Positions 22,401-45,313 of a stretch of DNA of 64,000 nt are shown here, one piece after another (the stretch's first letter is position 1; each line of letters starts with the position of its first letter). The position numbers and the translations under genes are program-made. The notes under the pieces were generated by a model that was not told the origin of the DNA, searched no databases, and worked only from the letters and a program-made list of their open reading frames with translations. This stretch comes from a virus. The stretch spans positions 12,843-76,842 of the IMG/VR virus record IMGVR_UViG_3300008120_000241; one strand, 5' to 3'.

Positions 22401-23959
22401 ATATTGGAAGGTCAAACTACACAATATCCGCAGTTACTTTTTCGTCACCTAATACTATATTATATCTTACTAGTACTATTGTATATTGTTCCGGAAACGC
22501 AATAATTGGAAATTTAAGTGATTTTACATTATGGAATGGTGATCAAATAATAAGAGGTGATTATTCCCACGCACAAGGTGAATTAACTTGGAGTATAGGT
22601 ATAGGTTCTAATACAAAAGGAGCATTGAATACCGCGTCTGGTTATCATTCACACGCCGAAGGTGGTGAAACACATTCCATTGGGAGTGGGTCACATAGTG
22701 AAGGTAGAACAACAACTTCTGTTGGTTCTTTTTCTCACGCTGAAGGTAATGCAACAACAGCATCAGGAGGTTATTCTCACGCTGAAGGTAGACAGACAGC
22801 CGCAATTGGAATTTATTCACACGCTGAAGGTGGTTCAACAACGGCATTAGGTGAATATTCTCACGCTGAAGGTAGAGAAACAATGACATCTGGAAATTAT
22901 TCTCACGCTGAAGGTTATCTTTCAACAACAGTTGGTAGTTATTCTCATGTTGAAGGTGAAAGAACAACAGCGTTTGGACGAAGTTCTCATACTGAAGGTA
23001 TAGGAACAATCACAGTAGGTGACTATCAACACGTACAAGGTATGTGGAATGTTACTGGTGATACAACACAAGGTGCTTTTATTGTGGGCAATGGTTCAGA
23101 TAATAACAATAGAAGTAATTTAATATTTGCAGCAGGAAACCAAGTTAATATATCCGGAAAAACAACAACCACGAACTTCAGAATGACATCTGGGGCAACA
23201 AATGGTTATGTTTTAACATCAGATAATGATGGAAATGCGAGTTGGAAAATATCCGAAGTTGTAGGTAACTATTTACCATTAAGTGGTGGAACCGTAAGTG
23301 GGGGTACATCGTTCACAAGTGGATTGAGTGCTAATACGATTTATATAACAACAACACCGACGACTGACACACAAACAACGACACAATATTTAACAAGAGA
23401 TTCTTCAACAGGTCAAATTAAAAGTAAAACTATTCCAGGACCAACAGTTTATGGTTTATTCGCTCAAACTGGGAATAGTACAACAATAAGTGGTACAACA
23501 TCGGAATTGTCATTAATTGATGGTGGTATTGGTACATTATCTGTCCCTGAGAATGGTTTTAACATTGGTGATTCATTTAGGGCTGACTTTGGTGGATTAA
23601 TGTCTTCAAAACAAAATGATGATATAAGAATAAGAATTAAGTCTGGATCTGTAGTTTTAGCGGATAGTGGTTTACAAAATATGGATGCCGGAACTGATGA
23701 TGTGTGGCAACTTTCAGTTAATTTTACGATAAGAAAAATTGGGGGGCCCACTCAAGCTGAAATTGTCACATTAGGCGTGTTCCACACAACAAAACAATCA
23801 AATGGCACACAAACAGGGTTTGCATTTAATACCGTTAATTATACAACATTTGACACAACAATACCAAATCAATTGGATGTGACCGTACAATTTACACAAT
23901 CCTTTTTCATCCAACCAAACATATGGATCATTAGGATTTTCCATCCAACCGTGTTTTGA
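19406..23959 (+). CDS. Tail fibre/adhesin with many 14-aa SHAEG (YadA-head-like beta-roll) repeats
   Basis: Dozens of xSHAEGxxTxAxG repeats, YLPLSGGT motifs, three copies of an inserted GKYGAYLS..LWNGDQI module; C-terminus probably aberrant. Confidence 0.8.
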   Translation: MSNKRISELPYIDQTKISGNTLVPLVTYYSAVTGTTVHTYVDDFKDYILSGVSGLTEIYVTGGTYSANTITFTNNTGGTFTVTGITVTGTTIMVGDYLPLSGGTVTGSTSFTSGLNSNIISATTYQNLPISGLTAGNNINISGSNGNFTISVTGITSGTTFTGNTSATCINDLYVSNLHGCSPITIHDSIQFTGSTASGLLSYAEGYQTTAYGDYSHSEGRQTTASGDYSHAEGSDTTASGEYSHAEGYNTQTGKYGAYLSGPITSGTITLNSSYGNVTPNFTSGNTIVIDDSDFNSNIGRSNYTISAVTFSSPNTIIYLNQTGTTCTGNAIIGNISNFSLWNGDQILRGDYSHAQGEGTKSIGISSSASGYYTIAFGNYSSTSGEYTIALGNYSHAEGRATTTIRNYSHAEGSTTTASGYYSHAEGIQTTASGLYSHAEGGQTVTIGQYSHAEGGETTAVGISTHAEGKSTMAYGVYSHAEGSGTTTYGVYSHAEGKSTTTIGGHSHAEGIGTTALGQSSHAEGIQTTSVGNGSHAEGNYSVAIGSASHAEGDYTTASGNYSHAEGSSTTASGYASHAEGSSTTASGVGSHAEGYNTQTGKYGAYLSGPITSGIITLNSSYGNVTSGFTSGNTVVIDDRDFNNNIGRSMFTISAVTFSSPNTILYLTSTIVNCSGNALIGNVSDFSLWNGDQIIKSNYSHSEGNNTFTLWENSHAEGYKSIALTPNSHAEGGDQLNNIPGGYTIGVGSHAEGVLTTSFGGWSHAEGYQTISYGNGSHSEGKLTTALGNFSHSEGLQTTASGYYSHAEGLQTTASGYYSHAEGYKTISSGIGSHAEGGDQLNDLAGGYAIGVGSHAEGINTTSIGIGSHTEGRSTTASGYGSHTEGSLTSASAYYSHAEGRETTASGDYSHTEGYKTIATGRSSHAEGGDQINNIPGGYALGTGSHAEGINTQTGKYGAYLSNPIVNGVITLNSSYGNVTSGFTSGNTVVIDDRYFNNDIGRSNYTISAVTFSSPNTILYLTSTIVYCSGNAIIGNLSDFTLWNGDQIIRGDYSHAQGELTWSIGIGSNTKGALNTASGYHSHAEGGETHSIGSGSHSEGRTTTSVGSFSHAEGNATTASGGYSHAEGRQTAAIGIYSHAEGGSTTALGEYSHAEGRETMTSGNYSHAEGYLSTTVGSYSHVEGERTTAFGRSSHTEGIGTITVGDYQHVQGMWNVTGDTTQGAFIVGNGSDNNNRSNLIFAAGNQVNISGKTTTTNFRMTSGATNGYVLTSDNDGNASWKISEVVGNYLPLSGGTVSGGTSFTSGLSANTIYITTTPTTDTQTTTQYLTRDSSTGQIKSKTIPGPTVYGLFAQTGNSTTISGTTSELSLIDGGIGTLSVPENGFNIGDSFRADFGGLMSSKQNDDIRIRIKSGSVVLADSGLQNMDAGTDDVWQLSVNFTIRKIGGPTQAEIVTLGVFHTTKQSNGTQTGFAFNTVNYTTFDTTIPNQLDVTVQFTQSFFIQPNIWIIRIFHPTVF
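20010..23040 (+). repeat. Degenerate 42-nt coding repeat array (core TTCTCACGCTGAAGG)
   Basis: 42-nt periodicity; exact tandem copy at 21785-21868. Confidence 0.85.
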
Positions 23960-24325
23960 ATAATAATCAAAATCTTTTCTTAAAAGGTTCGCCCTATGTG
24001 ATGAATGAAAATCTTCACAACCTAACCAATGTGGCAATATAAATTCACCTTCAATTTTTTCATATTCCATTGTGTTTTTAAAACCACGAACTTTCCAAAC
24101 GTCAATTGAGTCGTTATAATATTGTTTAAGAGCGTTTACGTATGGTCTCCACATAATTGAACACGGATGATTTAACCAACCTTTATAAGGTTTACCATCT
24201 TTACGTAAACGACCGGTAATAGCCGATATTATCTGGTAAGCCTCAACTCGTTGTTTACCTAAACGTTTGTTGTCAAGTGATTCTAATGATTTTCTAAAAT
24301 CTGAATATGGAAGAAATGTTTGCAT
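23798..24325 (-). CDS. Pyrimidine-dimer DNA glycosylase-like protein (DenV/MSMEG_6728 family)
   Basis: MQTFLPY..F..S...LD.KRLGKQRVEA.QI, GW.NHP...MW, HSSHRANLLRKD..YY; C-terminal about 30 aa probably aberrant. Confidence 0.8.
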   Translation of the reverse strand: MQTFLPYSDFRKSLESLDNKRLGKQRVEAYQIISAITGRLRKDGKPYKGWLNHPCSIMWRPYVNALKQYYNDSIDVWKVRGFKNTMEYEKIEGEFILPHWLGCEDFHSSHRANLLRKDFDYYSKHGWMENPNDPYVWLDEKGLCKLYGHIQLIWYCCVKCCIINGIKCKPCLCAI

Positions 24326-24380
24326 ATGACAAAACTAATGATTTTTTTTCAATTTACGATATATTTATAAGAAAAAAATT

Positions 24381-24914
24381 ATGAAACAATCTATAAGACT
24401 AACCGAATCCGAATTAATTAACGTAATTAAGAGGATAATTAACGAATCAAATGGTAAAAATTTGATGGAACAAGTGAATCCAATTGTTTCAGATTTAACA
24501 TTAACTTTAAATTATTCAGTTGACCCAACATCCAAACAAAAAACATATTCACAATATATTACGTTTTCTACACCTATTAACGTGGAAGATAGACAAGCTG
24601 GTAAAAGTTATATGTATGAAGGAGTTTATGCTATAACATTTGATTTGAAGGAATGGGAAAGTATAACACCGAAAAAACAAACTAAAAGCGGTAAATTTAT
24701 CACTGGAGAAATACGTGTTAGTGATAATGTTTTGAATTTTTTAAAACCATACCTTAATAAAGGTAAAAGTCCGGACCCGATTAAAATTATCAACCTAATT
24801 CCGATGATTAAAAATACAGAAGGACAAGTAGTTAAATCAACAGCTTCGTCTGGATCTGTATATTTAACTGTAACTGAAAAACAAACAGGAGTACCAGTTG
24901 GCCCAAAAGATTAA
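24381..24914 (+). CDS. Late protein with RLTESELINVIKRIINE leader, unknown C-terminal domain
   Basis: 177 aa; TATTTAT at 24362-24368. Confidence 0.75.
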   Translation: MKQSIRLTESELINVIKRIINESNGKNLMEQVNPIVSDLTLTLNYSVDPTSKQKTYSQYITFSTPINVEDRQAGKSYMYEGVYAITFDLKEWESITPKKQTKSGKFITGEIRVSDNVLNFLKPYLNKGKSPDPIKIINLIPMIKNTEGQVVKSTASSGSVYLTVTEKQTGVPVGPKD

Positions 24915-24923
24915 TTGAATTTT

Positions 24924-25361
24924 TCACATTCCTTTAATAATCTGAAATTTGGTAAATTTGTATATATCTTTATCTACACCGAACAATGAAAACCAACTAA
25001 CTTGTTCATTGTTTACATCTAAATTTATTAGCATCCCAATATCATATCCGTCTATTAAAAAACTAACCATATACAAACTACCAACATTATTGAATATGAT
25101 ATTACCTTCTGTTTCTAATTCACCACGATAAAAATATTTGAATTGATTGCGTGTTAAGTCAAATTCATACGATACATTCGCATCATTACTGAAGTCATCA
25201 ACAAATTTGGTACTATTAATAATATCAACAATATTTATACCAACGGTATCAATTACGTGAGTATGATATGTTTCAGAAACTTCTATTCGGATAACTTGAC
25301 CAAAAACTGACTGAGAGATTATTGAAGTCAACACTAGAATAAAAACGATTAACTTTTTCAT
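24924..25361 (-). CDS. Secreted beta-rich protein, paralogue of 28768-29184
   Basis: Sec signal MKKLIVFILVLTSIISQSVFG|Q; TATCTTTG host-type promoter at 25391-25398. Confidence 0.75.
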   Translation of the reverse strand: MKKLIVFILVLTSIISQSVFGQVIRIEVSETYHTHVIDTVGINIVDIINSTKFVDDFSNDANVSYEFDLTRNQFKYFYRGELETEGNIIFNNVGSLYMVSFLIDGYDIGMLINLDVNNEQVSWFSLFGVDKDIYKFTKFQIIKGM

Positions 25362-25483
25362 AACTTTTATTTTTATATTATTTATATCAACAAAGATAAG
25401 GTATTTTATATTATCAAACTAAATATTAACATTTTTTAACAATTTACCTATTGACTTAATTTAATTTTGTTTTTCTAATATAG

Positions 25484-25514
25484 AAAAAATCCCACCATAA
25501 TTAAATGGTGGGAT
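25484..25514 (-). terminator. Intrinsic terminator downstream of tmRNA
   Basis: ATCCCACCAT-AATTAA-ATGGTGGGAT stem; A-run on + strand gives a U-tract on -. Confidence 0.7.
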
Positions 25515-25518
25515 CAGT

Positions 25519-25931
25519 TGGTGGACCTAGTGAGCTCCGACTCTCACGTCCGGTTCGTCTTGTTTAAAAGACAACTACATGCTTAGGTTGGTATTTTCTA
25601 ATACCCCAAACTATTTGGTTTTTTTTTGACCAAAAACAAAGTTAATTTGTTCTTCACCATCGTAAATTAACAACCAATGGATGACTCAATTTTGGGTTTA
25701 GTCATTCTCTACCTTTGTTGAGACTTCTGTTCCAAGGTTATGTGTCCACCGACCCGCCGTTTCCGTACCTAATCTAGGCTACAGTAACTTCTTCAGTTGC
25801 AATTAAACCAACCACTGAAAGGTTATCTAATACGTTGCCGTATATTGTTTGAATCAGTTTTTAACGAGATTAATTCAGTCCCGGCATGCTCCCTTTATTC
25901 AACCAACGCCCGTCAAATCCGATATAGGCCC
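25519..25931 (-). ncRNA. ssrA: tmRNA (transfer-messenger RNA)
   Basis: 5' GGGCCTATATCGGATTTGACGGG pairs with 3' TAGGTCC-ACCA including a G3-U wobble; T-arm GTGAG..CTCAC; internal tag ORF 25839-25774 GNVLDNLSVVGLIATEEVTVA*; TACCTTTG promoter upstream. Confidence 0.9.
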
Positions 25932-26012
25932 ATATGACGTAATGAATATTTTCAAAGAACTTATTACAAAGGTAATATATTTATTTTAAATAACCAATAT
26001 ATTTATATAAAT

Positions 26013-27179
26013 ATGTTAAGAAAAAAATTCATTTTTGAGAACGAGGAAGAAGGACTAACTGATTATGAAAAAATCCTACGTGCCGCTAAAGGTAATATAA
26101 ACCTTAGTGAACTTGATTTTGAAGATTCCGAAGGTAATGATTATAGTGATGACATTGAAATTACTTATGATGGTTTGGTCTTTACTTTTGATGGTTTGGC
26201 CGAGTATTTAAGATTTTTCTTTAAAGACGAATACGAAGAAGGGAGTGAGTCTTATCACGATGCCGATCATTATGAGTATATGTATACCGGTAATTACGAG
26301 TGGAGTCGTGAATTTTGGGATAAGTCAACCGACGAATGGCGAGATGGTTATATACTTGATCGGTTAACACAAGAGCACCTAGATTTAATTAAAAGGTTAG
26401 CTCAAGTTTTATCACCCAATTTATCTAGTAAATTAAAAAACCTAAACATTGTTGATTTAACTAAACAAGATAAATTAAAAAAAGAAGTTTCTGATTTTCT
26501 AGAAACAATAGATTTATCTGATAGTATAATTGATAAATGGGTTGATGCTAGTGTTGATGGTACGACAAATAAAATCTATGAAGGTATTGAAGAAAGATAT
26601 TGTAATGTATTTAGTGAAATAGGTATTGAGAGATATAGTCAGAGATATTGTTTTTGGAAATATGAAATGGATTGGGGTTCTTGTATGATTTTATATGCTC
26701 GTTTTGGTACAGATGAGGATAAGTTTTTGGACTTACTGTTTGAAGCGATTAAAAAATTAAGAGTACGTCATTTACCGGTTTGGTATGAAATGGAATATGA
26801 ATTTTGGGACAACGAAGCTTTTAATAAAACTTGGGGTCCAGAGGTGACAGAATTATTAGAAGAGAAACTTGAAGAAATTGAAAATAATTCAGAATATTTT
26901 GATGAGAATTATAGTGATACTGTAGAAAAGGTACTACAACTTGGTGGTCTTGATAAATGGATAACAACAAATGACGATAAATATCAAATACGGATTAATC
27001 AAATTGAACCAGAAACCAGTTTAATTTCCTATAGTATTATACCAAAAGGTCAATGGAAAGCAAAAGGTGGAAAAACCGATATTGAAAGTTTAATATCGTT
27101 ATTCTACAACGAAAAACTATTTGATTTGACTGAATCAAAAAAGAGATTCTCAATCCTCAGAAAAAAATCTATCCTTTAA
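26013..27179 (+). CDS. Acidic hypothetical late protein
   Basis: 388 aa; TATTTAT 6 nt before ATG. Confidence 0.75.
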   Translation: MLRKKFIFENEEEGLTDYEKILRAAKGNINLSELDFEDSEGNDYSDDIEITYDGLVFTFDGLAEYLRFFFKDEYEEGSESYHDADHYEYMYTGNYEWSREFWDKSTDEWRDGYILDRLTQEHLDLIKRLAQVLSPNLSSKLKNLNIVDLTKQDKLKKEVSDFLETIDLSDSIIDKWVDASVDGTTNKIYEGIEERYCNVFSEIGIERYSQRYCFWKYEMDWGSCMILYARFGTDEDKFLDLLFEAIKKLRVRHLPVWYEMEYEFWDNEAFNKTWGPEVTELLEEKLEEIENNSEYFDENYSDTVEKVLQLGGLDKWITTNDDKYQIRINQIEPETSLISYSIIPKGQWKAKGGKTDIESLISLFYNEKLFDLTESKKRFSILRKKSIL

Positions 27180-28181
27180 AATACCATATAGATCCAATAA
27201 TTCATCATTAGATATATAGATTTCACTATCACCGTAGAAATCACTTATCAATATTCCATCTTCATCCTCAATAACATCAATCGTCTCCAATTGATGTACT
27301 TGAAAATCATCATTATCTTGAACAAGTGAATTCATTACTGTTTCTGACGTATACACAATTGGTTTATATTCGTATTGGTATTTTTTATAACCAAGCACTT
27401 TTACCATATTTTGACCAACAATTATTGCATTTTTTACATCGTCAATTGATATAAATTCTTGATTTGTGTGCATGTTATAATAACCGCACGACATATTAAT
27501 ACAACAAACATCAATTTTCTTTTTTAATTGTGAAATATCAGTGTATGGGTGTGATTGAATAAACATTTCATTTTTAAAACCATCCTCAATGACCTTTAAT
27601 GTTTTGTTAAAAAATTCGGAATCTCTTTCAAACAAACGAACACCCGAACAAATCTCGGTAATTAAATGATTTCCTGGGGCGTCATATTGTGTAATGTAAC
27701 CAACATCTTGAAGAAAATTCACATCACATTTACTTGATCCGTGACATCCGGTTTCTTCTGAAACAAACAAACCAATTTTAACTTTATCCAAAGTTTTTAA
27801 TAACTCCAAACAAATAAAAATACCACATTTGTCATCACCACCAATTCCGGTTGGTTTGTTATCTTCGGTATATGCCTTTAAACAAGGAACCATCTGGTTA
27901 TTGAATTGTTTGCCGAAGGTATTTGGTCTAATAAGGTTTTCTTCTTTTATGATAATTTTATCAACCTTTTGATGAACGGTATCAGTATGTGCGATGAACA
28001 TTGGGTAATATTCTCCTTCATTTAATTTACCTTTGGTTGCATAGACATTTAACATCTCATCCCTGTAATATGATACACCTGGAATCATATCAAGTTCGTT
28101 GCATATATATTCAACCATATCTTCTTCTTGATATGTTTTGGAGGGAACTGATAATAATTCTTTAAATTTATTTAGGTTCAT
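27150..28181 (-). CDS. M20/M28/M42-clan zinc peptidase
   Basis: AHTDTV, GGDDKCG, SEETG, YD and YNMHT metal/catalytic motifs; start ATG 28181. Confidence 0.85.
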   Translation of the reverse strand: MNLNKFKELLSVPSKTYQEEDMVEYICNELDMIPGVSYYRDEMLNVYATKGKLNEGEYYPMFIAHTDTVHQKVDKIIIKEENLIRPNTFGKQFNNQMVPCLKAYTEDNKPTGIGGDDKCGIFICLELLKTLDKVKIGLFVSEETGCHGSSKCDVNFLQDVGYITQYDAPGNHLITEICSGVRLFERDSEFFNKTLKVIEDGFKNEMFIQSHPYTDISQLKKKIDVCCINMSCGYYNMHTNQEFISIDDVKNAIIVGQNMVKVLGYKKYQYEYKPIVYTSETVMNSLVQDNDDFQVHQLETIDVIEDEDGILISDFYGDSEIYISNDELLDLYGILKDRFFSED

Positions 28182-28230
28182 CTGTTTTTTTTGTAAAGAT
28201 AACATATTTATTTAGATAAAACAAATTATT

Positions 28231-28734
28231 ATGAAAAGAACTTTAAGATTAACCGAATCTGAATTGATTAATGTTATTAAAAGAATAATAACCGAGCAAG
28301 ACACCGCACAAAAACCCAACGAGGATACTAGAATAACTCTACTAAATCGATGGAAAGATAAAAAAATTGTAAAAAATGGTGTGTTACGTGATTTTGGTTT
28401 AAATTCATTTAAAGTTTCTGGTCCTAACTATGATATTTGGGAATTTGAATTAACTGGTAATCCGTTAACGTCAGATGATATGGGTACTAGAACAATCGCC
28501 AGTGCTAAATATAAATACAATCCAACTAAAAAAGTTTGGATAGATATTAATGGAGAGGAAAGAACTGGAGACGTTCAACCATATAGTGTTTTAAATAGAT
28601 TTAAAGGTGAATCTGAAACCAAATGGACTGACTTTTGGGGTGGAGACACATATAAAGATTTAGTAATTTCATCCAATAGTCCGTTTTTAAAGGATATGAA
28701 ATTCTACTTGGGTATAGAAAGAACAAAAATTTAA
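28231..28734 (+). CDS. Late protein with RLTESELINVIKRIITEQ leader, unknown C-terminal domain
   Basis: 167 aa; TATTTAT at 28205-28211. Confidence 0.75.
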   Translation: MKRTLRLTESELINVIKRIITEQDTAQKPNEDTRITLLNRWKDKKIVKNGVLRDFGLNSFKVSGPNYDIWEFELTGNPLTSDDMGTRTIASAKYKYNPTKKVWIDINGEERTGDVQPYSVLNRFKGESETKWTDFWGGDTYKDLVISSNSPFLKDMKFYLGIERTKI

Positions 28735-28767
28735 TAACCCCTCAAAACTTAATCTGAGGGATCTATT

Positions 28768-29184
28768 TTACATGTTTTTGATTATTTCAAATTCTTTGAA
28801 TTTACAGATTCTAACCATTTCACCGATGTTTGAATACCATATAACTTGTTCATTATTTAAATCAGTATTTACAATCATACCAACAAGATGATCTTCTGAT
28901 GAAAAAATAATATTGAATACCCCATTGACATTGACAAAGATTATATCACCATCAACCTCAACTTTATTCTTTTTTATTAACTTAAAAGTTTTATTTGTTA
29001 AATCAAATATATAAGTCCCATTAACATTCCTTTCGGATTCGACTAAATCATTACGATTAATTGCCCCAACAACACTACTATCACTAGTTACAGCATCAAT
29101 GACTTTGGTAACCTTAATTTTGATTACTTGTGAGTTTACAATGTTAACGAACAAAAGAGCTAAAATAAAAAGGACGTTTTTCAT
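28768..29184 (-). CDS. Secreted beta-rich protein, paralogue of 24924-25361
   Basis: Signal MKNVLFILALLFVNIVNS|Q; TAGTTTTG promoter at 29216-29223. Confidence 0.75.
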   Translation of the reverse strand: MKNVLFILALLFVNIVNSQVIKIKVTKVIDAVTSDSSVVGAINRNDLVESERNVNGTYIFDLTNKTFKLIKKNKVEVDGDIIFVNVNGVFNIIFSSEDHLVGMIVNTDLNNEQVIWYSNIGEMVRICKFKEFEIIKNM

Positions 29185-29254
29185 AGTTTTATATGTTTAA
29201 TTAATAATTATAATACAAAACTACATATTTTGTTTCAATCCACCAAATATTTAA

Positions 29255-37665: not shown

Positions 37666-40644
37666 ATGGCAGAAAATAAATTAACGGTTTGGCAGAGGTT
37701 AGGGAAAGTATTTGGTCCGACATCCACATTGGATCAACAATCACCTGTGTTTAAATTTGATAAGAAACAACTATTAAAAACAACAGATAAAAATGAGTTT
37801 GAAAGGGAGAAACTTGAAGCCCAACAAACCATGTATATTGGTAAACAATGGCAGAAGGTTGAGAGTAATTTATACCAACAAGCGGTGTACTATGAACCAA
37901 CCAGAATGGCTTCATATTATGATTATGAGGCCATGGAGTACTCAATCCATGGGGACACCAAAATTGCCACTCCTGATGGTTTTATGACCATAAAAGAGCT
38001 TTCAGACAAGGGTAGAGATTATGAATTTATAACATACGCTTATGACCATAATTTGAAAAAAGTAGTACCAGCAATCGCCAGAAATGCTCACTATACCAGA
38101 GATGAAATGGCTTATAAAATTACGTTTGATGATGGGTCACATATTATCGCAACTTATGGTCATAGGTTCTTAAAAAGGGATGGTGTTTTTTGTGAGGTTG
38201 AAAACCTTAAACCGGGGGATTCAATGATGCCATTTTATAGAAAATCTTTTTACAATAATCAAAATTACCATTGGGTTTATACTTGTAATTCAAACGAGGG
38301 TCATCATGGTTGGATATCTGAACACAATTTAATTGCGGAGTGGTATTATAAAAGAAAAATTAATGAAGACGAAGAAGTTCATCATAAAGATTTCAATGGT
38401 AAAAATAACAAACCGGAAAATTTACAAATAATGAATATTTCCGAACATAGAGCTTATCATGCGAGATTAAACAACGAAAAATTATGGGCAAACCCCGAAT
38501 ATAGACAAAAAATGTCTGAAGTTGCTAGAAGAACCGGTAAGTATAGTTGGGAAGGGAAAAGAGCTAAAGAGAATAATCCGGCATATATAAAATTATCATT
38601 TGATTTGATTGTTGAAAAAGCAAGAGAACATAGAACGTTAATGGAAACTGCCACCTCACTTGGTGTTTCATTTAGAAAAATACAGAATGAACTTAGATTC
38701 AATGGGTTTAAAAATTGGTTTGATTTTTTGGATGTTTATGGAATTGATAAAAGTAATAGTGATACTTACGGTGAAAAAAACAATAACTTCAAAAAAATCG
38801 CTTGGGATTTATTAATTGAAATTGCTAGACAAGAAAATAGTATTACAAATACGGCCAAAAGATTGAATGTAAGTAGAAATAAAATTTTAAAAACAATAAA
38901 AGAAGGGGGATTTAATAATTGGATTACATTTTTGGAATCATATGGTATTGAAAAATCAAAACACCACCACCCAAAAAATGAAGAACCAGTTATTAATCAC
39001 AAAATAGTATCAATTGAACCATATGGTGTTGTACCAGTTTATGACTTAACTGTGCCGGGTTATAAGAACTTCGCTACAGATACCATTTTCTCACACAATA
39101 CACCTGAGATCTCTGCCGCTCTTGATATTTACTCTGAAGAATCCACCACTCCTGACCAAGACGGACACATTTTAAAAGTCTACTCTGAATCAAAAAGAAT
39201 TAAACAAGTATTGGTTGATTTGTTTGTAAATAGACTTGATATAAACACCAATTTACCGATGTGGACAAGAAACACTTGTAAATTTGGCGACAATTTCACA
39301 TATTTAAAGTTAGACCCAGAAAAAGGGGTTGTTGGGTGTCAACAATTACCAAATATCCAAATTGAAAGATTGGAAAAGGGAATGAGATTTCAACCGGACA
39401 AATATTCACAAGAAATGGAAAACGATGCTTTGAAATTTGTTGGGAAAGAAAAAAATATGGAGTTCAATACGTGGGAAATTGCCCACTTTAGAATACTTGG
39501 AGATGACCGAAAATTACCTTATGGGACATCTATGTTGGAGAAGGCTAGACGTATATGGAAACAGCTCCTTTTATCGGAAGATGCGATGATGATTTACCGG
39601 GTATCAAGAGCACCAGAAAGAAGGGTATTTAAAGTATTTGTCGGAAATATGGACGACAAAGATGTTGATTCATATGTACAGCGTGTAGCAAACAAATTTA
39701 AAAGGGATCAGATTGCTGACCCCAAAACTGGAAATGTGGATATGAGATACAATCAATTGGCCGTAGATCAAGATTACTTTATCCCGGTTAGAGACCCTTC
39801 CCAAACCAATCCAATTGAAACATTGCCGGGTGGTACAAACTTAGCCGAAATTGCTGATATTGAATATATCCAAAAGAAACTGGTAACTGCCCTTAGAATA
39901 CCAAAGGCGTATTTAGGTTTTGAAGAAGCAGTAGGTAATGGACAAAACTTATCTTTACTTGATATTAGATTTGCAAGAACAATCAACAAAATTCAAAAAT
40001 CAATGTTGGCCGAACTTAATAAGATTGCCATTATTCATTTATTTTTATTAGGGTTTGAAGATGAACTAACAAACTTTACGTTGGGGTTACACAATCCATC
40101 AAAACAATCCGAACTTCTTTCATTGGAATTGTGGAAAGAAAAAATTGAATTATACAAAAATGCGGTAGCTGAAATCGCAAATTCGGTTGCACCAACCTCA
40201 GCTTCTTGGGCTAAAAAGAATATTCTAGGTTTCTCAGATGAGGAGATCAGATTGGATTTACAACAACAACGAATTGAAAGGGCTGTTGCAGCTGAACTTG
40301 CTAAAACACCTGAAGTCATTACAAAAACTGGATTGTTTGATAATATTGATCAATTATATGGTAAAAAACCAGGTGAACCGGCAGGTGAAGCACCAGAAGG
40401 TGGAGAAGAACCTGGAGGAATGCCACCAATGGGTGGAGGATCTGAACTAGGAGGACCACCCCCACCACCGGGACCAGAACCAGGAGGTGAAGTAGGAGTA
40501 ACACCAGAATCAACCAAGAAAAATGATTTAAATTTAATTCTGGAAGATAACTTATATTATGGTAAAACCTCTCTTGATTTATCAAAGGGTAGATTAACCA
40601 TTAATGAAATTGATGACAAATTAAAAGATTTATTGGATAAGTGA
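37666..40644 (+). CDS. Portal protein (T4 gp20-like) with a contiguous intein
   Basis: YEAME..PEISAALDIY, YGTSMLE.ARRIWKQL.L.EDAM.IYR..RAPERRVF..VGNM, DYFIPVR, IETLPGG.NL.EI.DI.Y. Confidence 0.92.
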   Translation: MAENKLTVWQRLGKVFGPTSTLDQQSPVFKFDKKQLLKTTDKNEFEREKLEAQQTMYIGKQWQKVESNLYQQAVYYEPTRMASYYDYEAMEYSIHGDTKIATPDGFMTIKELSDKGRDYEFITYAYDHNLKKVVPAIARNAHYTRDEMAYKITFDDGSHIIATYGHRFLKRDGVFCEVENLKPGDSMMPFYRKSFYNNQNYHWVYTCNSNEGHHGWISEHNLIAEWYYKRKINEDEEVHHKDFNGKNNKPENLQIMNISEHRAYHARLNNEKLWANPEYRQKMSEVARRTGKYSWEGKRAKENNPAYIKLSFDLIVEKAREHRTLMETATSLGVSFRKIQNELRFNGFKNWFDFLDVYGIDKSNSDTYGEKNNNFKKIAWDLLIEIARQENSITNTAKRLNVSRNKILKTIKEGGFNNWITFLESYGIEKSKHHHPKNEEPVINHKIVSIEPYGVVPVYDLTVPGYKNFATDTIFSHNTPEISAALDIYSEESTTPDQDGHILKVYSESKRIKQVLVDLFVNRLDINTNLPMWTRNTCKFGDNFTYLKLDPEKGVVGCQQLPNIQIERLEKGMRFQPDKYSQEMENDALKFVGKEKNMEFNTWEIAHFRILGDDRKLPYGTSMLEKARRIWKQLLLSEDAMMIYRVSRAPERRVFKVFVGNMDDKDVDSYVQRVANKFKRDQIADPKTGNVDMRYNQLAVDQDYFIPVRDPSQTNPIETLPGGTNLAEIADIEYIQKKLVTALRIPKAYLGFEEAVGNGQNLSLLDIRFARTINKIQKSMLAELNKIAIIHLFLLGFEDELTNFTLGLHNPSKQSELLSLELWKEKIELYKNAVAEIANSVAPTSASWAKKNILGFSDEEIRLDLQQQRIERAVAAELAKTPEVITKTGLFDNIDQLYGKKPGEPAGEAPEGGEEPGGMPPMGGGSELGGPPPPPGPEPGGEVGVTPESTKKNDLNLILEDNLYYGKTSLDLSKGRLTINEIDDKLKDLLDK
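37942..39099 (+). mobile_element. 386-aa intein with HNH homing endonuclease in portal (Ser1 ... His-Asn, +1 Thr)
   Basis: SIHGDTKIATPDG, ATYGHRF, EVHHKDFNGKNNKPENL (HNH), VYDLTVPGYKNFATDTIFSHN|T. Confidence 0.9.
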
Positions 40645-42392: not shown

Positions 42393-43097
42393 ATGAAAAT
42401 ATTAGGACCAAACGATACGGGTAAGGGGATTCTTGTGGAATGGGATGCTGGAACTATCAATCCAAATGATACCAGAAATAATCTAGTGATAAAAGAATCT
42501 TACGGACAACTTGACCATTCAAAACCTTTTGTGTTTTATGCCACACTTCAAAAATATGGTGTACCAAATAGAAACGGAAGAATTTACCCTGAGAAAATAT
42601 TAAAAAGGGAAGCTGAGAAATACAAAGATATGATTAATCGTGGAATGTCAATTTCAGAACTTAATCACCCAGAATCATCACTAATTGATCTAGATAGGGT
42701 GGCTCATCTTATAACTGATGTATGGTGGGAAGATAATGTATTGATGGGAAAAATTAAATTATTAACAACACCCGGATTTCACGAGAGAGGAATTGTATCA
42801 TCAAAAGGTGATGTTGCCGCTAATATGATGAGACAAGGTGTAACAATGGGGGTATCATCAAGAGGTGTTGGTTCTTTGGTTAAAAAAGGGGAACAAAATG
42901 AAGTACAAGAAGATTTTGAATTAATTTGTTTTGATTTGGTTTCTTCACCATCCACACCTGGCGCTTACCTTTATTTAAATCAAGAGGATAGACCAAAATA
43001 CGAAGAAAAATTATCAGAACAACAAAATATTGATTCAAATTCATTTTCCAAATCAGTTGACTTAATGAAAAGATTATCCGATTATTTAGGAAAGTAA
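42393..43097 (+). CDS. Prohead core protease (T4 gp21-like)
   Basis: NRNGRIYP, ELNHP, GVSSRGVGS, FDLVSSPSTPGAY. Confidence 0.92.
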   Translation: MKILGPNDTGKGILVEWDAGTINPNDTRNNLVIKESYGQLDHSKPFVFYATLQKYGVPNRNGRIYPEKILKREAEKYKDMINRGMSISELNHPESSLIDLDRVAHLITDVWWEDNVLMGKIKLLTTPGFHERGIVSSKGDVAANMMRQGVTMGVSSRGVGSLVKKGEQNEVQEDFELICFDLVSSPSTPGAYLYLNQEDRPKYEEKLSEQQNIDSNSFSKSVDLMKRLSDYLGK

Positions 43098-43882: not shown

Positions 43883-44923
43883 ATGAAAAAAATAGTAAGA
43901 TTAACAGAATCGGATTTAACAAGAATAATTAAACGCGTTATTTCCGAACAAACTCAAGGTGAAAGTGGATTTATCCAAACAATAGTTGATAAATATAACA
44001 TTTCAGATGAGTTGAGAAATGAAATTATAAATACTATTAAAAATTCTGAGTGTAAAAATATTACGTTTGAAAAACTTAAAATGGGTGATGGATTGGCCTT
44101 AGGTGATAAGTTAATTTTAACCCCAAGGACATTAGAGAACACTTTGGGTAGATTCTTATTTATTTTATTTCACGAATTGGCACACCAATACCAATTTAAA
44201 AAATATGGAATGGAAAAAATGCTTGAATTATATAGTGATGAAATGGATTTAAAAGAAGCCGCACAATTTATGAAACAAGTTGAAAGTGTGGCGGATGAAT
44301 TTGCTGTAAGAAAATTAAAAAACCTAGAAAGAAAAGGATTAATTACACCATCAAGATCCGATATGTTTAAAGGTTATGACGGTATTTCGTTAGAAAGATT
44401 GGAAATAATGATTGATATGTTTAGAAATCAATTAAGGAAAAGTAACATTACTGGCGCTAAAAATATTAGTGAGTTTTTATACAATATGGTTAAAATTGAA
44501 CAAACAAACCCACAAGTAAATTCTGAAAAACAAAAACCTTCTGAAATCACACCAACTGAAATAAAAAAAGAAATGAATAAAGAAAATAGTACAATCAGTG
44601 CCGATGAAGTATATTATGAAATTCCAAAAGGTATAAAAAAAGTTGTTGGTAATTTAGATGCTTCGTCAATGGAAGATTTTAATGATGTTGAAGTTATAGA
44701 TGGTAATTTAACTGTTAATAGTGATAAAATCAAATCACTACAAAATATTAAAACTATAAATGGTAAACTTTGGGTTTATGGTAACAATTTTGAAGACTTT
44801 GGTAATTTAAAAACGGTAAAAGGGGATGTAACATTGACTAAAAATACACCATTATTGGATATGTATACTGAAGATGAAATTAAAGGAATGATTAATATTG
44901 GAGGAAACTTACAAATAAAATAA
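43883..44923 (+). CDS. Leader-bearing zincin-like metalloprotease with C-terminal repeat domain
   Basis: MKKIVRLTESDLTRIIKRVISEQ; FHELAHQYQ..VESVADEFA; V.GNL-type repeats. Confidence 0.7.
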   Translation: MKKIVRLTESDLTRIIKRVISEQTQGESGFIQTIVDKYNISDELRNEIINTIKNSECKNITFEKLKMGDGLALGDKLILTPRTLENTLGRFLFILFHELAHQYQFKKYGMEKMLELYSDEMDLKEAAQFMKQVESVADEFAVRKLKNLERKGLITPSRSDMFKGYDGISLERLEIMIDMFRNQLRKSNITGAKNISEFLYNMVKIEQTNPQVNSEKQKPSEITPTEIKKEMNKENSTISADEVYYEIPKGIKKVVGNLDASSMEDFNDVEVIDGNLTVNSDKIKSLQNIKTINGKLWVYGNNFEDFGNLKTVKGDVTLTKNTPLLDMYTEDEIKGMINIGGNLQIK

Positions 44924-44935
44924 TTAAATAATATT

Positions 44936-45313
44936 ATGAAAAAAGTAATTAAATTAACAGAATCGGATTTAACTCGTATTGTTAAACGAGTAATCCAGGA
45001 AGTAAACGATGAATTTGACGATGATTCAGTTATTGACAATAATTTCAATCAAGAAGAATATGATGAATTATTGGACCAAGCGAGGGAATTTTTATGTCGT
45101 GAAATTGGTTTAGAAGAAGATGAGGTTTACAATATGAGTGATGACCAAATTATTGGTGAAATTAAATATTATGATAAAGGTTTATATCGTAGATTAGAAG
45201 AACTGAAATATAGTAAACCTGTTGATTTAGATGAACCATACGATTCAATTGGTGGGTATTCAGTAAATGATTTGAGAAGAACTTTTAAAAATTATAAATA
45301 CGACAAAAAATAA
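44936..45313 (+). CDS. Small acidic protein with MKKVIKLTESDLTRIVKRVIQE leader
   Basis: Leader near-identical to 43883 at protein and DNA level. Confidence 0.75.
   Translation: MKKVIKLTESDLTRIVKRVIQEVNDEFDDDSVIDNNFNQEEYDELLDQAREFLCREIGLEEDEVYNMSDDQIIGEIKYYDKGLYRRLEELKYSKPVDLDEPYDSIGGYSVNDLRRTFKNYKYDKK

Follow-up and report, generated by a model that had tools for sequence, protein, structure and literature searches.

Two convergent gene units of a giant T4-like phage as probable instances of one recurring neighbourhood at a T4-type internal-protein locus

Two convergent genes whose arrangement occurs twice in one phage genome raise the question of whether their products are made for each other or whether the genes are neighbours at a locus of common design. 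This question was examined in a DNA stretch of 64,000 nucleotides (nt), hereafter the window, which spans positions 12843-76842 of one virus record of 76,842 bp (IMG/VR IMGVR_UViG_3300008120_000241) that is ~26% complete by estimate. Each of the two units consists of a plus-strand gene encoding a protein with an N-terminal leader and a convergent minus-strand gene encoding a protein with a signal peptide. An earlier note, made from the sequence, had proposed cognate pairs in the sense of superinfection exclusion, kin recognition or polymorphic toxin/immunity systems. Our results favour another answer, namely that the two units are probably two old instances of one recurring neighbourhood at a T4-type internal-protein locus and not matched pairs. 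The four open reading frames (ORFs), the presence and coordinates of which were confirmed, and the hairpin of the second unit are:

24381..24914, plus strand: cargo gene W1, 177 amino acids (aa); leader MKQSIRLTESELINVIKRIINE at residues 1-22 (nt 24381-24446), flexible linker, beta-sandwich body
24924..25361, minus strand: exported protein gene 1, 145 aa; signal peptide of ~21 aa, predicted cleavage before Gln22
28231..28734, plus strand: cargo gene W2, 167 aa; leader MKRTLRLTESELINVIKRIITE, body with a single close relative known (85% identity)
28768..29184, minus strand: exported protein gene 2, 138 aa; signal peptide, predicted cleavage before Gln19
28736..28763, no strand: hairpin between the two convergent stop codons of the W2 unit, terminator-like and serving both directions

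The units lie 3.85 kb apart, and the elements repeated in them occur in the same order, at distances of 3844 and 3850 bp. The exported proteins 1 and 2 are paralogues over their full length (39% identity, E 5e-24), as had been recognised before, and the 76.8-kb contig contains only these two copies of the gene. Since the DNA identity of the parts shared by the two units is only 70-79%, the duplication is old; a recent duplication was rejected for the same reason and because the two exported paralogues group with different phages in the tree. The W1 unit, in which just 9 nt separate the stop codons, is an exception to the shared downstream hairpin. The chance that both minus-strand genes have as their 3' neighbour a gene with the leader class of the window cargos (leader B; 8 genes among ~96 ORFs) amounts to p ~0.006, and to p ~0.07 when all leader classes are counted.

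The plus-strand products had been described as sharing an identical leader followed by C-terminal parts that cannot be aligned. This description is accurate: 18 of the first 24 residues are common to W1 and W2, including the identical RLTESELINVIKRII, the common start reads MK..(I/L)RLTESELINVIKRII(N/T)E, and nothing is alike beyond it. Iterated profile searches with the body of W1 or W2 did not find the other body. The leader is, however, not special to these two genes. A six-frame scan of the contig revealed it at the head of at least eight genes, all on the plus strand; all eight leaders end in I/L/V-x-E, and the bodies that follow are unrelated by BLAST. Two of the leader-B genes (43883-44923 and 44936-45313) sit between the genes of the prohead protease and the major capsid protein. 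The first of them (plus strand) encodes a protein of 346 aa with an HExxH motif (FHELAHQ), a possible metallopeptidase-like cargo for which Pfam gave no match.

Leaders and cargos are combined in more than one way. The same cargo family is carried by two leader classes, and leaders are exchanged between cargo families. The orthologue of W1 is the cargo of the related locus L013 (35% identity, E 2e-27), and W1-type cargos also occupy the third or fifth array position in L028-L031, behind a different leader. A word-based homologue search with the bodies of W1 and W2 yielded one close relative each, and a search of the ESM Atlas with the W2 cargo gave no usable match. The AlphaFold2 (AF2) model of W1, with a predicted local distance difference test (pLDDT) value of 78, consists of the leader helix, a disordered linker and a beta-sandwich. 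Its fold matches are weak (Z up to 6.1) and point to an immunoglobulin (Ig)/fibronectin type III (FN3)-like beta-sandwich; among them no similarity to a toxin or an enzyme was found. Pfam, PHROGs and PADLOC contain no family for any of the four unit proteins, nor did they disclose a toxin or defence domain in W1 or W2.

Because the leader tags many genes and ends in I/L/V-x-E, and because a gp21-type protease is encoded, the plus-strand genes are read as T4-internal-protein-like: they probably encode cargos of the T4 internal-protein type that are packaged into the capsid and cleaved by the protease. A separate observation concerns the C-terminal ends. The array proteins of other lineages (L001, L003, L004, L009, L011, L013, L015, L019, L021, L022, L025 and L027-L031) all end in a lineage-specific tail (TPTKP, NPTRP, IPSKS, PTQK or PTKKP), whatever their leader or body. 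The window cargos have no clear shared C-terminal tail.

The two genes of each unit are preceded by different promoter motifs, which occur where the earlier note had placed them:

24362..24368, plus strand: TATTTAT, late-promoter-like motif, 19 nt before the W1 start
28205..28211, plus strand: TATTTAT, late-promoter-like motif, 26 nt before the W2 start
25391..25398, minus strand: TATCTTTG, Bacteroidota -7-type promoter motif (TAnnTTTG), 37 nt before the start of exported gene 1; TTTG 16 nt further upstream
29216..29223, minus strand: TAGTTTTG, promoter motif (TAnnTTTG), 39 nt before the start of exported gene 2; TTTG 20 nt further upstream
24330-24337: TAGTTTTG motif just upstream of denV

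In the whole contig TATTTAT is found 8-45 nt upstream of 25 same-strand starts compared to 2.1 expected, and the genes that it precedes include the protease and other structural genes. Based on these observations, TATTTAT appears to behave as a late promoter. A 44-nt block upstream of denV (24324-24367) and of exported gene 2 (29210-29253), 77% identical on the minus strand and containing TAGTTTTG in both places, looks like a shared early-promoter module. In most of the homologous phage loci (W1, W2, L001-L013, L017, L019, L020, both copies of L027, L028 and L029) TAnnTTTG lies ~32-40 nt before the ATG, and in nearly all related loci hairpins are present 3' of the exported gene. Early expression of the exported gene would fit its host-type promoter. 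A scan for the sigma-70 consensus returned fewer matches than in shuffled sequences, a consensus that is not informative for a Bacteroidota host.

If the genes of a unit were cognate, the exported protein should vary with its neighbour. The opposite was observed. In L001-L012 the exported proteins are 93-100% identical and stand beside at least four cargo bodies that are unrelated by BLAST (three behind leader B, of 185, 146 and 164 aa, and one of 251 aa behind a different leader). L013 has the W1-orthologous cargo, yet its exported protein belongs to another clade, nearer to W2 than to W1. Among close relatives identity reaches 87% for the W1 cargo and 99% for its exported neighbour, and the same asymmetry is seen in contigs that span both genes; it is opposite to the prediction for a cognate pair. 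Of the proposed combination of an early exported protein with a late protein delivered by the virion, the two roles are plausible from the promoters, the signal peptide (see below) and the leader, and the linkage recurs, but the cognate pairing did not stand.

The linkage itself was followed through 14 non-redundant phage or mobile-element contexts of the exported gene. A convergent leader-tagged gene lies at its 3' end in 11 of the 14, a tally that overstates independence because the contexts are related by descent (W1, W2, the L001-L013 lineage, L014/L019, the L015/20/21/22/25 lineage, L023, L027a, L028-31 and L041). The leaders of these contexts belong to the classes RLTESDL, FLITEEEKSRILGMH and NINDYKKRFYNLMEST, and the linkage persists where the exported protein is just 20-25% identical to the window copies. 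L027 is a second phage with two exported paralogues around a leader gene. Genes for stable RNAs and their partners are frequent on the other side: tRNA genes lie upstream of the exported gene on the same strand in L015, L019, L021, L022 and L025, and so does the SmpB gene in L019 (3490-3900) and L041 (1033-1443), with an SmpB gene nearby in L027 (9-419). Near the SmpB and barrel genes a second conserved signal-peptide protein was noticed (L041:45-743, with a DUF2927 match; L027:468-1079; L017:2480-3154).

The exported gene also occurs without the convergent partner, contrary to what strict co-occurrence demands. No convergent leader-tagged gene is present in L017, L027b and L032, and none was found near the chromosomal homologues in metagenome-assembled genomes (MAGs) of Crocinitomicaceae/Flavobacteriales. 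The chromosomal copies nest inside the phage diversity in the tree and adjoin a gene for a Metallophos-family phosphoesterase; an ORF near them was read by eye as what we take to be glutamyl-tRNA synthetase. In L024:141-1243 and L034:3956-5138 the same 45-nt stretch precedes both the chromosomal exported homologue and the signal-peptide gene that comes after it. The stretch would read MTRIFNLSHQPKLD if translated and hints at duplication of the 5' region. A pattern scan of IMG/VR with the W1-type subgroup yielded no locus.

The layout had been considered to be without a described counterpart. This was too strong, as the denV-ipII-ipIII-e-tRNA region of T4 is collinear with it. The order in the T4 record is denV, ipII, ipIII, e, nudE, e.2-e.8, rnaC/D and tRNAs, followed by ipI; the window has denV, cargo, exported gene and tmRNA (transfer-messenger RNA), so that the cargo directly adjoins denV and a stable-RNA cluster lies on the other side. 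The features that anchor the comparison are:

23798..24325, minus strand: denV-like pyrimidine-dimer glycosylase (Pfam Pyr_excise, E 2.3e-20), anchor of the T4 synteny
25519..25931, minus strand: phage tmRNA gene (Rfam RF00023, 78.3 bits, E 1e-28), directly upstream of exported gene 1 on the same strand
25488-25515: terminator hairpin of the tmRNA gene
37666-40644, plus strand: Portal_T4 (Pfam), with an intein splicing domain and an HNH endonuclease domain inside the gene
42393..43097, plus strand: T4 gp21-type prohead protease (Pfam Peptidase_S77, 80 bits), candidate leader-removing enzyme
46913-48733: Gp23 major capsid gene (Pfam)

An ARAGORN run did not report the tmRNA at 25519..25931. The internal proteins of T4 are diverse and have only the capsid targeting sequence in common (PMC3012670). 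The internal head proteins IPI, IPII, IPIII and Alt of T4 resemble the window cargos in being unrelated small proteins with an N-terminal tag that ends in (L/I)-x-E, and the contig encodes a gp21-type prohead protease along with T4-type portal and capsid proteins. The differences are that the window phage has far more cargos, that its cargo lies on the strand opposite to denV and the RNA genes, and that an exported beta-barrel gene takes the place between cargo and RNA cluster where T4 has the lysozyme gene e. For the window cargos, packaging and cleavage are predictions from the sequence.

The variability of the cargos has a parallel in the hyperplastic regions of T4-like phages, in which accessory genes are shuffled via conserved promoter/terminator motifs (promoter early stem-loops, PeSLs; PMC4122927, PMC2839356). 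As in PeSL regions, variable accessory genes in the window lineage are swapped between short conserved sequences, and single-gene units with their own promoter and hairpin are gained or lost as a whole among close relatives. In contrast to PeSLs, exchange on the 5' side appears to take place at the coding leader, and on the 3' side at the terminator that the convergent gene uses as well.

In the model that we consider most plausible, the plus-strand gene is one of a large set of late genes, the products of which begin with an amphipathic leader that ends in (I/L/V)-x-E. The leader may act like the T4 capsid targeting sequence and load unrelated cargos into the prohead; the gp21-type protease would then remove the leader, and the cargo would be ejected with the DNA. 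The minus-strand gene stands as a transcription unit by itself, with a promoter of host type and a terminator of its own, and its product, presumably a substrate of the Sec system and signal peptidase I, would become a ~115-residue beta-barrel in the periplasm of the infected cell. In most cases the exported gene is the last of a tRNA/tmRNA/SmpB cluster and adjoins the 3' end of a cargo gene or array. Cargo genes would be exchanged freely beside it, probably by recombination at the common leader and the 3' terminator.

The exported protein was studied further. The word search yielded 56 near-length relatives, and the family comprises 66 cluster representatives at 50% identity among 1.84 billion proteins. 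All members are stand-alone proteins of ~140 aa, except for one protein of 1232 aa with twelve short matched stretches, and none contains a Pfam domain. Exported protein 2 has relatives at 80-81% identity, and its ESM Atlas matches are restricted to Bacteroidota and phage clusters. The signal peptides begin with a segment rich in Lys, continue with 12-15 hydrophobic residues and end in a c-region of small residues. According to the Q-rule of Bacteroidetes, signal peptidase I substrates have Gln at position +1 (PMC5837995). The proposed Sec signal cut before Gln agrees with the alignment of 38 diverse members, in which the Gln right after the signal peptide is the sole invariant residue, and the exported proteins fit the rule. 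Beyond it only Tyr58 is nearly invariant.

For exported protein 1, AF2 predicted a signal helix and an up-and-down beta-barrel (pLDDT 82, predicted template-modelling score 0.74). The best fold match has a VIA Z of 8.7 (root-mean-square deviation 3.5, 94 residues aligned), amid many unrelated barrels; further matches at Z 5-7 include Bacteroides lipocalin-like proteins and a Tannerella protease inhibitor. The matches are generic small barrels that do not point to a function, nor do they single out the calycin/lipocalin-like barrels with their eight to ten up-and-down strands. Foldseek against the PDB gave no match for the exported protein at E <= 0.001, and a PDB sequence search gave none for the unit proteins. 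The mature exported protein is thus predicted to be a ~115-residue beta-barrel of an uncharacterised family. As only the Gln is invariant and Tyr58 nearly so, with no catalytic site marked out, binding would be likelier than catalysis.

T4 Sp (spackle) and Imm are small phage-encoded envelope proteins that mediate superinfection exclusion. The exported proteins of the window resemble them in that they are small, are predicted to be placed in the periplasm by a signal peptide, and have a host-type promoter; they differ in their predicted beta-barrel fold and share no sequence or family match with them. Nor does the exported protein belong by sequence to any superinfection-exclusion family in Pfam, PHROGs, PADLOC or the PDB sequences. 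Our guess at its role, to which we are not firmly attached, is that it is a binding protein of the periplasm and modifies the infected cell's envelope, for instance so as to exclude phages that come later.

Several points weigh against a mere neighbourhood at an internal-protein locus, in addition to the common descent of the contexts tallied above. The T4 capsid targeting tag is ~10 residues long. The window leader has ~22 residues and falls into several classes; its likeness to T4 lies in the end motif and the encoded protease. Moreover, contigs from four lake runs join 28169/28181 to 29261/29269 and skip the W2 cargo and exported gene 2 together. The denV, tmRNA, peptidase and ClpC genes on the flanks are shared widely. 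These joints are suggestive only, since the metagenome contigs that show them were matched at 80% likeness and the sequence between the two sides is unknown; taken at face value, they indicate that the population gains or loses the W2 cargo jointly with exported gene 2, as a single block. This, together with the synteny at low identity, could reflect a functional link of the exported protein to the whole cargo system.

Such a link at the level of the system, in which the exported protein serves all cargos and not a single one, is the alternative that survives best, and we regard it as possible but unlikely. For example, it could act in superinfection exclusion, or as a lysis-timing sensor that meets the proteins ejected by later-arriving kin phages and recognises a feature common to them, such as the lineage-specific C-terminal tail. 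The tail-to-tail link, which is kept with three leader classes and where exported proteins have only ~20-25% identity to the window copies, the two paralogues around a leader gene in L027, the W2 block, and the common tails of the array cargos in other lineages would all be accounted for. Arguing against it is the finding that the exported neighbour occurs at just 2 of the 5 leader-B clusters of the contig, most leader genes being without an exported partner. The family is also found alone in bacterial chromosomes, the window cargos lack a clear common tail, and the alignment of 38 members marks out no conserved binding or catalytic site, as only the cleavage-site Gln is invariant and Tyr58 nearly so. 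Common descent and the position beside the tRNA/tmRNA cluster account for the synteny without a function.

Rather more doubtful is the extended proposal that the exported family is a dedicated periplasmic part of the injected-cargo system of Bacteroidota T4-like giant phages. Its task could be, for example, exclusion or the sensing of superinfection through the proteins that kin phages eject when they arrive later. If true, this would explain its place at the ends of cargo arrays across deep divergence and its joint gain or loss with cargo.

We give still less credence to the leader as a virion-attachment adaptor for external decoration or fibre-like proteins, which would make the neighbourhood a tail or baseplate accessory module. 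The Ig/FN3-like beta-sandwich of W1 behind an N-terminal helix is in line with this idea, as are the 1517-aa fibre-like gene that precedes W1 in the window and the array of the L001-L013 lineage, which adjoins gp25-like and gp6-like baseplate genes. It is contradicted by the T4 protease motif (I/L)-x-E at the end of every leader class, with the protease gene present, by the prohead-core position of the two leader genes between protease and capsid genes, and by the HExxH motif of one leader-tagged product, which is a better fit to injected proteins.

A cognate effector/immunity or kin-recognition pair, in which each exported protein would specifically neutralise or recognise the variable domain encoded by the convergent gene, is very improbable. 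It has in its favour two pairs within one window, their retention in close relatives with contigs spanning both W1-unit genes, the relatives of the W2 cargo (85%) and of its exported protein (80%) on records of equal length, and the resemblance to polymorphic toxins in a conserved N-terminal part, a variable C-terminal part and a small gene beside. Against it, co-variation fails, and W1 evolves more rapidly than the exported protein next to it. The two genes converge, have promoters of different types and do not form a co-transcribed toxin-immunity operon; neither W1 nor W2 yielded a toxin, enzyme or defence domain; and an exported, periplasmic protein and a cytoplasmic cargo co-injected with the DNA are not normally expected to meet.

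An apparent new toxin/immunity-like system is therewith set aside and replaced by a reading of the locus that can be tested. The plan of the T4 internal-protein locus, with denV, injected cargos and stable RNAs, appears to be preserved in giant T4-like phages that infect freshwater Flavobacteriales, but with cargo sets that are much larger than that of T4 and freely shuffled. The exported beta-barrel family is conserved, marks the edge of the cargo array and has copies in host chromosomes. It is a reasonable candidate for an envelope-acting phage protein and provides a landmark for cargo arrays in metagenomes.

The window represents part of the genome of a giant T4-like phage whose host is a freshwater member of the Bacteroidota of the Flavobacteriales type, as concluded from the T4-type portal (with intein), gp21-type protease and gp23-type capsid genes identified by Pfam, from the lake metagenomes that are the source of the related loci, including records of 254 and 296 kb, and from the homologues of one gene in Crocinitomicaceae/Flavobacteriales MAGs. 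A nucleotide search of the region against GenBank phages gave no match, and protein searches against them gave chance-level matches only. The G+C content of the window is ~30%. Between the two units lies an M42/M20-like peptidase gene (27150-28205, minus strand; PHROG peptidase, E 2e-37), which forms a minus-strand cluster with the tmRNA gene and a split-intein ClpC gene.

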